Notes: generated from the letters alone by a model not told the origin. DNA of 64,000 nucleotides from Alphaproteobacteria bacterium UBA6376 (GCA_002437665.1 DJQW01000001.1:65304-129303); one strand, 5' to 3'. Positions 1,732 through 56,764 are shown, counted from the first letter of the stretch. Numbers and translations: made by a program.

Positions 1732-1875
1732 TTCACACCCCCATGTGTTGTTTTTCACAAACAAAAAACCACCGAAACAATTCAGGTGGTTGGAGGTTCG
1801 AAACAATTATCAAGAATTGTGTGCCTATTCAATATATTCAGCCACCCTCCAACCGCTTGGTTGGGGGTGACGGCA
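1732..1875 (-). promoter_or_regulatory. structured 5' leader (large hairpin plus terminator-like hairpin) upstream of the Cys-rich secreted gene pair
   Basis: On the minus strand: GGTTGGAGGGT, a loop of about 45 nt, AACCTCCAACCACC, then CCACC..GGTGG plus a U-tract, then GGGGGTGTGAA ATG. The same architecture occurs at 21167-21320. Confidence 0.45.
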
Positions 1876-19172: not shown

Positions 19173-20479
19173 TGAATAATAATGATACGATTTTTGCCCT
19201 GTCATCGGGGCATGGGAAAAGCGGCGTTGCCGTTATTCGCATATCTGGCGACAACCTGCGCGATTTGTTTGCGCGAATGCTGGGGCGCGGTAATTTTGAT
19301 GCGCGCCGTACATATTTTGCAAACCTGACCGATAATGCGGGCGATTTGATTGACCAAACGATATTGGTATTCTTTGCCGCGCCACATTCATTCACCGGCA
19401 CGGACGTAATCGAAATCTATTCACATGGCGCACCGGCGGTGATAAATAAAATCTTTGACTTTCTGGGGGCGACGGGTGCACGAATGGCAACCCGTGGGGA
19501 ATTTTCGCGCCGCGCATTTCTGAACGGTAAAATGGATTTGGCGGATGTCGATGGACTGGCCGCATTACTGGACGCCCAAACAGAACGCCAGCGTCGCGCC
19601 GCACTGCAATCAATGACCGGCCGCGACAGTCGTATTTACGACACATGGCGCGCGCAGATGGTTGAAATCGCCGCATACGCCGCCGCAATTTTGGACTATG
19701 CCGATGACGAATTACCAACAAATATCGGCGAAAAAATTCGTGACAAAGCGCAAAAATTATACGACGAAATTGACAATGCAATTTCGCGCTATGCCGCGTC
19801 CCGCGCTATCCGCAGTGGTTTTAACATTACACTGGCAGGTAACACAAACGCGGGTAAATCATCGTTGTTTAACCGTCTGGTTGGTGAAAATCGTGCGATT
19901 GTTTCCGACACCCCTGGGACAACACGTGATGTTGTTTCATGCACACTGGACATCGACGGGTACATGGTAAATATTTCAGATACGGCCGGCCTGCGCGATA
20001 CAGACGATGCGATTGAACAAATCGGGATTCAGCGCACAAATGACGAAATCAAAAACGCCGATTTGATTTTGCATGTAATTGATGGTGGTCAAAGTTCAGA
20101 TTTCAAAGTTCAAAGTTCAAATAATGAAATTACCGTTATAAATAAATCAGACCTGTGTGATTGCAAAAATAAAAACGATGCAATTTATGTATCGGCAAAA
20201 ACAGGCGACGGTATTGATAACCTGATGATTGCAATTCGCCGGCGCATTACCGAATTGGTGGGCACGTCCGAATCCCAACTGACCGTCAACGCGCGCACAC
20301 GTGCATTGTTGACCGATGCTCGCACAGAATTGCACGATGCAATCGCCGCCGGTGATAACTATGATATATTTTCAGAACACGTTCGCCGCGCCGCAGACGC
20401 AATCGGCAAAATTCTGGGGACAATCACCGCATCCGATGTAATGGACGCCACATTTTCACAACTGTGTTTGGGAAAATAA
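19172..20479 (+). CDS. mnmE: tRNA modification GTPase MnmE (TrmE)
   Basis: FALSSGHGKSGVAVIRISG, G-domain motifs and a C-terminal CLGK. An in-frame repeat-derived insertion lies near the G-domain (see repeat 20089-20127). Confidence 0.92.
   Translation: MNNNDTIFALSSGHGKSGVAVIRISGDNLRDLFARMLGRGNFDARRTYFANLTDNAGDLIDQTILVFFAAPHSFTGTDVIEIYSHGAPAVINKIFDFLGATGARMATRGEFSRRAFLNGKMDLADVDGLAALLDAQTERQRRAALQSMTGRDSRIYDTWRAQMVEIAAYAAAILDYADDELPTNIGEKIRDKAQKLYDEIDNAISRYAASRAIRSGFNITLAGNTNAGKSSLFNRLVGENRAIVSDTPGTTRDVVSCTLDIDGYMVNISDTAGLRDTDDAIEQIGIQRTNDEIKNADLILHVIDGGQSSDFKVQSSNNEITVINKSDLCDCKNKNDAIYVSAKTGDGIDNLMIAIRRRITELVGTSESQLTVNARTRALLTDARTELHDAIAAGDNYDIFSEHVRRAADAIGKILGTITASDVMDATFSQLCLGK
20089..20127. 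repeat. fragment of the family-A repeat inserted in frame inside mnmE
   Basis: ttcagatttcaaagttcaaagttcaaataatg matches the arm caaagttcaaagtgcaaataatg of the element at 9012. It encodes an extra QSSDFKVQSSNNE. Confidence 0.65.
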
Positions 20480-20510
20480 AAAAACACCGGCATTTGCCGG
20501 TGTTTTTTTA
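20477..20510. terminator. bidirectional terminator between mnmE and the outer-membrane protein gene
   Basis: acaccggcatttgccggtgt hairpin with flanking A and T runs. A nearly identical hairpin is at 54346. Confidence 0.65.
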
Positions 20511-20518
20511 TTACAATC

Positions 20519-21166
20519 TCAGAACGTATATCTCAATCCAAAATCAATGCTATATGCCCCCTGCAAATCGGCCTTGGCTGATGCATTCAAACCAATAAAC
20601 GTCAGCATTACATTCCACCCAAACCCATTGATTGATGTTTCACTAACCAGACCTAATTTTAATACGCCCATAGCCCCATCATCAGAAACAGAATCTTCAT
20701 ATGTATAATAATAACTTTTTGCTTTTGCTGTTTCGTGCAACCACGAATGTCCAACACCAACTGAAATTAAAAAATCTGAACGCGGTTCTGAATCACCAGA
20801 CAAACGAATATAATTATCATAAGAAAAATAAAGTGTGGTCAAATCCATTGTTCCTTCAAACGTGGAATTGTCATACCAATCTGAACCATTTACAACATCG
20901 CCCAACGTTGGCATATATGACAATGTTGCCGTAACACCACCATTATAAATATTTTCACGTTCTCCAAAACGCATACCACCAGATACAGACAACGCAACAC
21001 CGCCGCTATCATCTTCAAACGTATCATCATCAATAGAATCATTTATATCATCAGAAAATGTTGGGCCGGCATAGCCAATATTTGCACCCACAAACCATTT
21101 CAAATCCGCCATTGCAGGCATTGTCAGAATTGATAACAATCCTGTTGTTAAAAATAACTTTTTCAT
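20519..21166 (-). CDS. outer-membrane beta-barrel protein (OmpA-like/OmpW-like barrel domain)
   Basis: Signal peptide MKKLFLTTGLLSILTMPAMA. Alternating hydrophobic beta strands. C-terminal ...GLRYTF with terminal Phe. Start refined to MKKLF. Confidence 0.6.
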   Translation of the reverse strand: MKKLFLTTGLLSILTMPAMADLKWFVGANIGYAGPTFSDDINDSIDDDTFEDDSGGVALSVSGGMRFGERENIYNGGVTATLSYMPTLGDVVNGSDWYDNSTFEGTMDLTTLYFSYDNYIRLSGDSEPRSDFLISVGVGHSWLHETAKAKSYYYTYEDSVSDDGAMGVLKLGLVSETSINGFGWNVMLTFIGLNASAKADLQGAYSIDFGLRYTF

Positions 21167-21320
21167 TTCACACCCCGTTCGTGCTTTATTAAATAAAAAC
21201 CACATTGGAATACCAAAGTGGTTGGAGGTTGAATACTATTATTTACGGAATAGTGTCGCTTATTCTGATATATCGCGACCCTCCAACCATCAAATATGAT
21301 TGGAGGTGTTTTTTGTCCCC
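21167..21320 (-). promoter_or_regulatory. structured 5' leader (same architecture as 1732-1875)
   Basis: Minus strand: CCTCCAATCA..TGATGGTTGGAGGGT, a loop of about 47 nt, AACCTCCAACCAC, then CCAC..GTGG plus a U-tract, then GGGGTGTGAA ATG. Confidence 0.45.
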
Positions 21321-21419
21321 ACGGACACGTAAATAGAGGGTATTCACACCCTGCACCATTTCTATGGTACACCGTGATTATATTCTATGGCACATTCAAA
21401 TTCCAGATAAAATTTGTGC

Positions 21420-21640
21420 TGATTTCAAAAACAAAAACCGCCCATCAGGGCGGTCTAAATATAAAATAAACTGTTCATTGTGCCGACTGCGCGGGTTTCA
21501 TGCGGCGTAAAAACAAACCGCCCATCAGGGCGGCCTAAATTAAAGAGAACGGTGCAGATGCGCCGATGTCGGCAAGCGTAGTGTATATGTAATACATGAG
21601 CGCGCCGACATCAAGCAGATGTGCCGTTATATTTAATTTA
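21420..21640. repeat. two copies of aaaccgcccatcagggcgg(t/c)ctaaat hairpin repeat plus a palindromic element with gcgtagtgta..tacatgagc core
   Basis: Direct repeats about 100 bp apart. The palindrome cggtgcagatgcgccgatgtcggc...gccgacatcaagcagatgtgccg has a core related to the elements at 2100-2280. Confidence 0.65.
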
Positions 21641-36938: not shown

Positions 36939-37025
36939 TGGTGGGAGTGGCTGGATTCGAACCAGCTCAGGCTTAAGCCAACAGATTTACAGTCTGCCCC
37001 GGCTCTCCAACTCCGGCGCACGCCC
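36939..37025 (-). tRNA. tRNA-Tyr (GTA), 87 nt with long variable arm; slightly non-canonical
   Basis: Minus-strand read: GGGCGTG-CG-CCGG-AGTTGGAGAG-CCGG-G-GCAGA-CTGTAAA-TCTGT-TGGCTTAAGCCTGA-GCTGG-TTCGAAT-CCAGC-CACTCCC-A-CCA. Anticodon GTA. One C:U mismatch in the acceptor stem and no U8. Confidence 0.6.
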
Positions 37026-37105
37026 AATCTCTGTTTGTCCGGCTTCGTTATTCTACGCCGCGACAATGAATTTTCAGCCCTTGCTTTCGCTGTGGTGAAA
37101 ATTCT

Positions 37106-37180
37106 TGGTGCGGGCAGCGGGAATCGAACCCGCATTTCAAGCTTGGAAGGCTTGCATACTAGCCTTTGTACTATGCCCGC
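37106..37180 (-). tRNA. tRNA-Gly (TCC)
   Basis: Minus-strand read: GCGGGCA-TA-...-CAAGC-CTTCCAA-GCTTG-AAAT-GCGGG-TTCGATT-CCCGC-TGCCCGC-A-CCA. Anticodon TCC. Confidence 0.85.
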
Positions 37181-54201: not shown

Positions 54202-54275
54202 TGGTGCCCTAAGCAAGAATCGGACTTGCGACTCGTCCTTACCAAGGACGTGTTTTACCACTAGACTATTAGGGC
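54202..54275 (-). tRNA. tRNA-Thr (GGT), with non-canonical T-loop (TCCGATT) and one D-stem mismatch
   Basis: Minus-strand read: GCCCTAA-TA-GTCT-AGTGGTA-AAAC-A-CGTCC-TTGGTAA-GGACG-AGTC-GCAAG-TCCGATT-CTTGC-TTAGGGC-A-CCA. Confidence 0.55.
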
Positions 54276-56687: not shown

Positions 56688-56764
56688 TGGTAGCGGGAGA
56701 GGGACTTGAACCCCCGACACGCGGATTATGATTCCGCTGCTCTAACCAGCTGAGCTATCCCGCC
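56688..56764 (-). tRNA. tRNA-Met (CAT); could instead be tRNA-Ile2 read with lysidine
   Basis: Minus-strand read: GGCGGGA-TA-GCTC-AGCTGGTTA-GAGC-A-GCGGA-ATCATAA-TCCGC-GTGTC-GGGGG-TTCAAGT-CCCTC-TCCCGCT-A-CCA. Confidence 0.7.

Follow-up and report, generated by a model that had tools for sequence, protein, structure and literature searches.

The 64 000 nt stretch of DNA analysed here (the window, meaning that whole stretch) derives from Alphaproteobacteria bacterium UBA6376 (GCA_002437665.1 DJQW01000001.1:65304-129303) and carries two look-alike 5′ leaders, termed copy A and copy B. Both lie on the minus strand, each directly upstream of a minus-strand gene and facing it in the same way. Copy A precedes a pair of genes for Cys-rich secreted proteins and copy B a gene for an outer-membrane β-barrel, whose product was recognized by Pfam as OMP_b-brl (E = 9.7e-06). 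An earlier, sequence-only reading of positions 1732-1875 had proposed that a conserved structured leader was shared by these two unlinked loci. Reading the sequence at 1500-2100 and 21000-21500 recovered all of the elements described, in their minus-strand places and far beyond chance. The motif GGTTGGAGG or its complement occurs exactly four times in 64 kb, against an expectation of 0.2 (none of 100 shuffled sequences reached four), and these four sites are the two stem arms of each leader copy. The bipartite pattern GGTTGGAGG-N30-60-CCTCCAACC was found twice in the window (expected 0), as was GGGGTGTGAAATG (expected 0.17).

Copies A and B are ~74 % identical over their common part in a pairwise alignment and the differences between them are compensatory. 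A covariance model (CM) built from relatives (R1) scored the two copies at 115.8 and 103.6 bits on the minus strand and only 26 and 23 bits at the same two sites on the plus strand, identifying a strand-specific motif. A scan of the whole window with the CM found nothing above a bare terminator beyond the two copies, and searches of relatives brought the collection to ~190 distinct copies, recovered from Candidatus Enterousia / Rs-D84 metagenome-assembled genomes (MAGs) and gut metagenomes.

The anatomy of the leader was established by aligning 116 distinct copies, folding the inner part copy by copy and inspecting 140 nt upstream. The leader is ~200-300 bases in size and, on the gene strand, opens with a -10-like hexamer, followed by two hairpins (Ha and Hb), a spacer, a small hairpin (H1) or a lineage-specific insertion, and an A-rich linker. 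Its 3′ part comprises a first segment, seg1 (CUCCAACC), a spacer of 3-10 nt, a second segment, seg2 (GGUUGGAGG), the hairpins P2 and P3, a 7 nt strand between P3 and the third segment (J3/1), that segment, seg3 (CCUCCAACC), a terminator and a U-tract; the Shine–Dalgarno (SD) sequence and ATG follow ~30 nt beyond. An 8 bp Ha was predicted at this place in 103 of 153 distinct 5′ domains, with the loop GNNUU (GUGUU in 58 of the 103), and Hb consists of a 3 bp G-C stem with an 8 nt loop. P2 carries the conserved loop GAAUAUAUUGAAUAAG, in which GAAUA and AAUAAG are read as the sides of an internal loop because some copies carry an inserted hairpin in the loop.

This layout amends the sequence-only reading in several respects. 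The stem of two arms is present, corresponding to seg2 and seg3, but a third copy of the arm, seg1 (CCCCCAACC at 1867-1859 and CCTCCAATC at 21306-21298), lies just upstream and can pair with the 5′ arm. The loop of ~45 nt is a real interval (49 and 51 nt) but not a loop, as it holds the covarying hairpins P2 and P3 and one strand of a pseudoknot. Likewise, the interval 1732-1875 falls within the leader but covers only its 3′ half, the unit reaching a promoter-like -10 near 2019 in copy A and near 21382 in copy B. The identical GGGGTGTGAA spacer ahead of the ATG is also real, but is peculiar to these two loci and to the barrel-gene orthologues, the SD regions of other members being ordinary and varied. 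The sequence-only reading could not have shown seg1, the 5′ domain, the pseudoknot or the spread over >100 species-level MAGs.

Covarying helices and competing segments

The helices of the leader are maintained by compensatory change. In a CM alignment (A4) of both sequence classes described below, 94.6 % of cells were paired and 19 of 26 pairs showed changes on both sides. The covariation score was 0.376, compared to 0.142 ± 0.007 for shuffled alignments (0 of 500 reached 0.376) and ≤0.055 for slid partners. This alignment was fitted to the model and so leans toward the structure, but the same exchanges were already visible in raw MAFFT columns. RNAalifold, when applied to the raw MAFFT alignment, recovered only the helix formed by seg2 and seg3 (P1), without covariation: the search pattern itself had fixed P1, and the inner hairpins were out of register, which was remedied by setting the structure by hand and realigning with the CM. 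The elements found to covary were P1, P2, P3, H1, Hb, the pseudoknot and the terminator. One pair in the P2 stem, for example, was U-A in 33, C-G in 28 and G-C in 13 copies, while the second pair of P3 alternated between A-U (59) and U-A (17). All four pairs of H1 had double-sided changes, and the three stem pairs of Hb were paired in 148-152 of 153 copies, the third varying between G-C, G-U and A-U.

The three segments were also seen to change together. The CM search revealed copies missed by the exact pattern, in which seg2 was GGUCAGGAGG, seg3 was CCUCCUGACC and seg1 was CUCCUGAY, as well as one with GGAGU/ACUCC. The former define a variant class with CUCCUGAC, GGUCAGGAGG and CCUCCUGACC as seg1, seg2 and seg3, respectively. 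When metagenomes were scanned with only the variant seg2 and seg3 fixed, 77 loci were obtained, ~9 of which were GC-rich chance matches. Seg1 was CUCCUG in 56 of 57 copies with this seg2 and seg3, compared to none of 130 main-class copies, and contiguous seg1:seg2 complementarity had a median of 9, compared to 5-6 in cross-class controls. Since both classes co-occur on single contigs (L125, L129, L144 and L200), the match of seg1 to seg2 is intramolecular rather than a habit of particular species. Within the main class, the seg1 variants CUCCAAUC, CUCCAACU, CUCUGACC, CUCCGACC and CUCCAGCC keep their pairing through G-U, which is valid on the gene strand only. On this comparative evidence, seg2 has two real and mutually exclusive partners, seg1 and seg3.

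The leader also contains a long-range pseudoknot. The 7 nt just 5′ of A-CCUCC (e.g. GUUUCGA) are the exact Watson–Crick complement of the Hb loop (UCGAAAC) in 167 of 181 distinct copies, and this 7-mer occurs in 38 different variants. As a control, 5′ domains were compared with the 7-mer of another copy, which gave 8 matches in 3362 comparisons (0.2 %). The outermost pair of the 7-mer is invariant and common to the Hb and P3 stems, so that the informative helix is of 6 bp. With P1 formed, the helices P1, P2, P3 and the pseudoknot meet via linkers of 0, 1, 0 and 1 nt, constituting a four-way junction. Two other pairings were rejected. An extended helix between GGGG of the Hb 5′ strand and CCUC of seg3, predicted by RNAfold, is disfavoured, as covariation supports Hb as a hairpin and the 19 copies with its A-U variant would be mismatched to seg3. 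Covariation was absent for a pairing of the Ha loop (GNNUU) with the A-rich linker.

Folding energies place seg2 with seg1. The minimum free energy (MFE) folds of both window leaders contained the seg1:seg2 hairpin and the terminator, with z-scores of -4.9 and -3.5. Across the 81 family members folded, the seg1:seg2 state was stabler than the P1 state in every case (mean 10.2 kcal/mol, with pseudoknot energy not counted), and the unconstrained MFE never paired seg2 downstream. At the 3′ end, a G+C-rich hairpin is followed by a U-tract, as in intrinsic terminators; GGUGGUUUUUU is nearly invariant and the stem pairs covary. The last AACC of seg3 doubles as the base of this stem, and the energy of the hairpin changes from -11.1 kcal/mol when complete to -3.5 kcal/mol with AACC held in P1 in copy A, and from -11.8 to -3.9 kcal/mol without AACC in copy B. 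At the 5′ end, 111 of 162 copies, including copy A (33 nt), have a TAnnnT hexamer that stops 33-35 nt short of the Hb loop 7-mer.

Downstream genes and distribution of the family

Among the 192 copies with at least 200 nt of flanking sequence, 191 had a same-strand open reading frame (ORF) of at least 45 aa downstream. Neither of the outcomes that would have spoken against the sequence-only reading, a dispersed repeat lying mostly away from gene starts or stems lacking covariation in homologues, thus occurred. The ORF began a median of 30 nt after the U-tract and within 80 nt in 179 cases, which leaves too little room for another promoter. Roughly two thirds of the downstream ORFs begin with a signal-peptide-like N-terminus, and most of the products belong to the Cys-rich secreted proteins, outer-membrane proteins and small XRE regulators. 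Two large families of Cys-rich secreted proteins (48 and 30 members, 8.9 % and 5.3 % Cys) were accompanied by a 60 aa XRE-HTH family, the outer-membrane barrel and many singletons. Pfam recognized few of the products (Ephrin_rec_like, HTH_3/19/31, DNA methylases, ABC exporter, PAP2, trypsin and OMP_b-brl) and no metabolic theme was found among the downstream genes. This mixed gene set resembles those of second-messenger or global-signal switches.

The leaders preceding the XRE-HTH gene form a conserved syntenic sub-family, as they always adjoin the same tRNA gene (…CTCTAACCAACTGAGCTAACCACCC…) on contigs L007, L022, L039, L048, L072, L076 and L113 and have a distinct P3 type (GCAUA…UGUGC). The SD sequence differed between classes when the 22 nt before start codons were compared: it was CAGGAG in 21 of 46 variant-class leaders (L125-L200) against 4 of 122 in the main class, where AAGGAG was the usual form (21 of 122). 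The extra C of CAGGAG extends complementarity to the CUCCUG of the variant seg1 and seg3 (CUCCUGAC-type segments). This hints at an added translational layer, in which the SD may be masked, with the relatedness of the copies weakening the count. SD complementarity to seg3 beyond CCUCC was supported in the variant class only, not the main class, and was rejected as a general rule.

Scanning a single genome of each species with GGTTGGAGGG-N35-60-ACCTCCAACCA yielded at least 117 loci. Among the matches listed, nearly all were from Candidatus Enterousia or from unnamed gut or rumen Alphaproteobacteria or 'Rickettsiales' MAGs, and at least 5 copies were present in one MAG; with 2 in the 64 kb window, we roughly estimate 10-30 copies per genome. 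The genus Enterousia belongs to the order Rs-D84, the genomes of which are mostly <1 Mb (PMC12306168). Contigs of the MAG GCA_003509625.1, from a gut alphaproteobacterium, encode the barrel protein of copy B. Typical leaders were also seen on contigs deposited under Bacteroides fragilis and Muribaculaceae bins (L015 and L086); these records are probably mis-binned contamination and not an occurrence outside the Alphaproteobacteria. A phage origin was rejected, as the pattern was present in only one IMG/VR contig.

Rfam 15 (4227 models), applied to the whole window at gathering thresholds, identified only four tRNA genes, on the minus strand (36942-37180, 54205-54275 and 56691-56764). At E-values up to 10, in a permissive scan that excluded the 5′ hairpins of copy A above 2000, the two leaders gave only chance-level matches, to MIR1515 (18 bits; threshold 140) and NsiR1 (20.6 bits; threshold 39), on the opposite strand. 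The leader family was not described in the literature searched on Enterousia, Rs-D84 and alphaproteobacterial attenuators and pseudoknots. The leader is an undescribed RNA family of a known attenuator/riboswitch kind.

Coordinates and surroundings of the window copies

Table 1. Elements of the two window leaders and the genes behind them, all on the minus strand
Feature	Copy	Position	Description
Promoter-like site	A	2014-2042	TTGTGT 2042-2037, 17 nt spacer, TAGTAT 2019-2014; putative function
Ha	A	1987-2007	GCCGGTGG / CCATTGGC, loop GUGUU
Hb	A	1971-1986	GGGG UGUCGAAA CCCU; loop TCGAAAC 1980-1974 is the pseudoknot 5′ strand
Insertion	A	1889-1960	Two hairpins (1960-1944, 1916-1889) in place of the small H1 of most copies
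seg1	A	1859-1867	CCCCCAACC; alternative seg2 partner, paired with seg2 in the MFE
seg2	A	1846-1854	GGUUGGAGG; pairs with seg1 or seg3
P2	A	1821-1845	Conserved loop GAAUAUAUUGAAUA; stem covaries
P3	A	1803-1820	CAAUU...AAUUG
J3/1	A	1798-1804	GTTTCGA, pseudoknot 3′ strand; partner 1980-1974
seg3	A	1788-1796	CCUCCAACC, P1 3′ strand; last AACC is also the terminator-stem base
Terminator	A	1758-1791	AACCACC...GGUGGUU and U-tract
SD and ATG	A	1729-1742	SD GGGGGUG; ATG 1731-1729 of Cys-rich secreted protein gene
Genes	A	1333-1731 and 1040-1321	Two Cys-rich signal-peptide proteins; no Pfam family
-10 hexamer	B	21377-21382	TATAAT, 30 nt upstream of the Hb loop 7-mer; -35 weak
Ha and Hb	B	21337-21376	Ha 21376-21351, Hb 21352-21337; Hb loop TGAATAC 21346-21340 is the pseudoknot 5′ strand
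H1	B	21313-21329	GUGUCC GUGG GGACA, then A-rich linker
seg1	B	21298-21306	CCUCCAAUC
seg2	B	21280-21288	GGUUGGAGG
P2 and P3	B	21235-21279	P2 21279-21255, P3 21254-21235
J3/1	B	21230-21236	GTATTCA, pseudoknot 3′ strand
seg3	B	21220-21228	CCUCCAACC
Terminator	B	21191-21223	AACCACUUUGG...CCAAUGUGGUU and U-tract
SD and gene	B	20519-21176	SD GGGGUG 21176-21171; ATG 21166-21164; outer-membrane β-barrel gene

The arrangement that replaces H1 in copy A was also found in L064, L020 and L056, with insertions of ~75-110 nt and two hairpins, showing that large insertions are tolerated between Hb and seg1. On the opposite strand of copy B, the plus reading of 21298-21320 presents the complement of the seg1:seg2 hairpin followed by a T-run (the complement of the A-rich linker) and resembles an intrinsic terminator; it gave a weak NsiR1-like match (E = 0.074). 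Such a structure could block antisense transcription and might account for the conservation of the A-rich linker.

Other hairpins were noted around copy B. Between an AMP-binding (acyl-CoA synthetase-like) gene and the leader lie two near-identical minus-strand terminator hairpins (CCGCCCTGATGGGCGG with a T-run; 21435-21456 and 21514-21537), ~80 nt apart. The region separating the barrel gene from the convergent mnmE contains a hairpin (20461-20529) with an A-run on one side and a T-run on the other, which scores as a terminator on both strands and looks bidirectional.

A candidate two-state attenuator and its alternatives

The proposal of the sequence-only reading that the leader is a cis-regulatory RNA rather than a random repeat is supported by its position, strand specificity and covariation, the co-change of seg1, seg2 and seg3 and the 7 nt pseudoknot. 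On balance, we lean towards the view that each copy is an mRNA 5′ leader that would act in cis as a transcription attenuator, a riboswitch-like, two-state RNA with an ON junction stabilized by an effector. Transcription would start at the promoter within the conserved unit, producing an RNA that opens with Ha and Hb. In the default OFF state, the emerging seg2 would pair first with the upstream seg1, forming a local hairpin that serves as an anti-antiterminator; seg3 would stay free, its AACC would join the terminator stem and RNA polymerase would stop at the U-tract ~30 nt before the start codon. Where transcripts do read through, their SD may in addition be masked by the CCUCC left free in seg3. 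In the ON state, seg2 would pair with seg3 as P1, the four-way junction would assemble and, with AACC held in P1, the terminator hairpin would be crippled and the gene transcribed. The effector would stabilize the junction, probably through contact with the core of the junction or with GAAUA...AAUAAG, the conserved internal loop of P2.

Two properties of riboswitches are represented in the leader: a covarying, structured sensor domain (P1, P2, P3, the pseudoknot, Hb and H1) and, in silico, an expression platform exclusive with the sensor fold, the terminator falling from -11 to about -3.7 kcal/mol. The elaborate and conserved tertiary architecture points to a specific ligand and the non-metabolic regulon suggests a global signal. 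We favour a small ligand or ion as the putative effector, that is, a true riboswitch, over a protein, and this is the weakest step of the proposal.

Several observations weigh against this interpretation. The evidence throughout is comparative and thermodynamic, and it is from this that we infer where transcription starts, termination and read-through, the identity of the ON state, and that there is an effector and of what nature. A simple promoter scanner flagged neither the copy A site (8 of 12 matches) nor that of copy B, and a simple terminator scanner flagged neither terminator in the window, owing to an 11 nt loop in copy A and an internal mismatch in copy B; the promoter and terminator assignments rest as a result on family-wide position and covariation. 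In the nearest-neighbour model the ON state lies ~10 kcal/mol above OFF, so an effector would need to supply much energy or act kinetically during transcription. A heterogeneous regulon without a metabolic gene is unusual for metabolite riboswitches, and the few copies that precede no gene (the middle one of L094, and L049 775-923) fit a free-standing RNA better. Finally, the patterns used to collect most of the loci hold seg2 and seg3 constant, and many of the copies are related as paralogues or orthologues, so that the counts do not represent independent events.

The same two-state attenuator could instead respond to an RNA-binding protein (a dedicated antiterminator, a NusG paralogue or an Hfq/CsrA-like factor) that captures seg1 and the A-rich linker, or the P2 loop, and so releases seg2 for seg3. 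We regard this as unlikely but credible. The regulon, made up of surface, secreted and accessory genes, resembles those of RfaH/LoaP-type or protein-dependent antitermination; moreover, a conserved, single-stranded A-rich linker adjoins seg1, and the strong energetic preference for OFF would suit a factor that sequesters seg1 during transcription. However, protein-dependent attenuators usually use one hairpin or short repeats, whereas here there is a ~200 nt pseudoknotted four-way junction with two extra hairpins, no candidate protein was identified, and the genomes are <1 Mb (PMC12306168). A switch with no effector at all, which would respond to temperature, Mg2+ or polymerase speed and pausing (through the level of nucleoside triphosphates or ppGpp) as a thermometer or kinetic sensor, appears improbable. 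The competing helices are nearly equal in length (8-9 versus 9-10 bp), the seg1:seg2 hairpin forms first and could be a pause hairpin, and the lack of a metabolic theme would be in keeping with such a sensor. Against this, the invariant P2 internal loop, the GNNUU loop of Ha and the precise junction suggest a binding pocket or tertiary contact rather than simple melting, and the gut is thermally stable. Ribosome-mediated attenuation in the trp/his style, with a leader peptide translated across seg1 and a stalled ribosome freeing seg2 for seg3, follows the same 1:2 / 2:3 / 3:4 logic, and 96 of 162 copies have an ATG-initiated ORF reading into seg1, several of which end at the UAA or UGA of the P2 loop. 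It is nonetheless very improbable and was rejected, as a conserved, SD-preceded short ORF overlapping seg1 was not found: the start position and frame are not conserved, an SD is absent and many copies have no such ORF. Furthermore, the H1 loop and the seg1-seg2 loop contain indels that are not multiples of three, and substitutions track base pairing and not codons.

Two further explanations place the function outside the leader of the adjacent mRNA. The units might be genes for trans-acting small RNAs of ~200 nt, the CCUCC anti-SD segments of which mask the ribosome-binding sites of target mRNAs, with the upstream position secondary; we consider this a more remote prospect than an effector-free switch. 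Each unit has its own promoter-like site, terminator and two CCUCC-containing segments, the CAGGAG of variant-class SDs (21 of 46 leaders, compared to 4 of 122) extends complementarity to CUCCUG, and orphan and tandem copies exist. At L094:5548-6110 (minus strand), three leader copies stand in tandem, each with a promoter-like TTGTAA or TTTACT, a 17 nt spacer and TATAAT or TATATT, the 5′-most being degenerate (terminator hairpin absent, seg3 altered). At L049:775-923 (plus strand), an intact copy of 116.7 bits is followed by a second G+C-rich terminator and then by the promoter of another copy at 1036-1184, and looks like a free-standing RNA or a relic. On the other hand, in 191 of 192 copies a same-strand start codon follows at a median distance of 30 nt, too close for another promoter to fit in between, so that the downstream gene must be read through the terminator, and seg1 and seg3 have covarying partners in cis. 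Terminated leaders could have a role in trans besides that in cis. A DNA-level element, whether a dispersed palindromic repeat or miniature inverted-repeat transposable element (MITE), an invertible segment with GGTTGGAGG/CCTCCAACC at its ends or an operator of the small XRE-HTH proteins, would explain the multiple copies, the perfect 9 bp inverted repeats, the operator-like tight palindrome CTCCAACC-N3-10-GGTTGGAG and the presence of XRE genes among those regulated. By comparative analysis this reading is effectively refuted: orientation to genes is fixed, the inner segment was never found inverted, and copies within a genome differ by helix-keeping compensatory changes, including G-U pairs valid on one strand only. 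In addition, a dimeric operator could not accommodate the variable distance between seg1 and seg2 (3-10 nt), and a 7 bp complement ~150 nt away covaries.

When compared to known systems, the leader is close in kind to riboswitches that act on terminators, above all to ON switches and to those with junction or pseudoknot aptamers, such as the pbuE adenine, yybP-ykoY Mn2+ (with its four-way junction), c-di-GMP-I/II and ZTP riboswitches. It shares with them a multi-helix junction with covarying stems and conserved loop or junction nucleotides, a P1 3′ strand overlapping the 5′ base of an intrinsic terminator, a location in the 5′ untranslated region and, as in signalling-molecule classes, several copies per genome. 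It differs in that it has no Rfam match and a dedicated third segment (seg1) competes for P1, the sequence of which is nearly invariant and resembles an SD/anti-SD pair. Furthermore, its pseudoknot sequence is 'private' to each copy and its regulon is one of secreted and surface proteins and not of a pathway. The cobalamin riboswitch also has a hairpin loop that pairs with a distant strand beside the expression platform (a kissing loop), but the partner in the new leader is a junction strand instead of a second loop and there is no sequence or CM similarity. Classical four-segment attenuators (trp, his and pheA) have the same exclusive pairings, with 1:2 as the early hairpin, 2:3 as the antiterminator and 3:4 as the terminator; the new leader, however, has no conserved leader peptide, and its 2:3 helix has two hairpins within it and gains support from a long-range pseudoknot. 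T-box leaders are similarly long (200-300 nt) and multi-domain, end in a terminator/antiterminator choice and occur in many copies co-duplicated with genes. In contrast to these, the new leader has no T-box sequence or specifier loop, its genes are not related to aminoacyl-tRNA, its variable 6-7-mer pairs within the same RNA rather than with a tRNA, and the T-box Rfam model gave no match at E-values up to 10.

Similarities outside cis-acting leaders are more limited. Anti-SD small RNAs (CcsR/'cuckoo' RNAs and AbcR with CCUCCUCCC loops) share an alphaproteobacterial host, CCUCC motifs, sibling copies and Rho-independent terminators, yet in the new leader CCUCC belongs to stems whose partners are in cis, and the units are positioned ~30 nt ahead of start codons and have no Rfam match. 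REP/BIME, Correia elements and MITEs are likewise multi-copy, intergenic and built of inverted repeats, whereas the new element is strand- and position-specific and its copies diverge by compensatory changes at the RNA level. The near-identical copies in either orientation expected of a dispersed, MITE or Correia-like repeat were not found, as 191 of 192 copies are co-oriented upstream of genes and the window copies are ~74 % identical.

In summary, our study describes an orphan structured RNA with unusually clean comparative support, comprising ~190 examples, covariation of a triple of segments and a pseudoknot of 38 variants. It offers a target for effector discovery and for understanding how a three-way strand competition and a pseudoknot set a transcriptional decision. 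It also provides a handle on uncultured, reduced-genome gut Alphaproteobacteria, in which it marks a coherent regulon of secreted Cys-rich, outer-membrane and small XRE proteins, and the motif may be used as a marker to annotate such surface-protein genes in metagenomes. A more far-reaching version of our proposal, which we consider possible but doubtful, is that the leader represents a riboswitch of a new class, in which an aptamer made of a pseudoknotted four-way junction is combined with an anti-antiterminator of its own, and that it senses a global signal and switches most of the secreted Cys-rich surface proteome. If this were true, a second messenger, an ion or a host-derived small molecule would be sensed via ~10-30 copies per sub-megabase genome, and control of the cell surface in the Candidatus Enterousia / Rs-D84 gut symbionts, a lineage in which transcription factors are few, would lie mainly with RNA.

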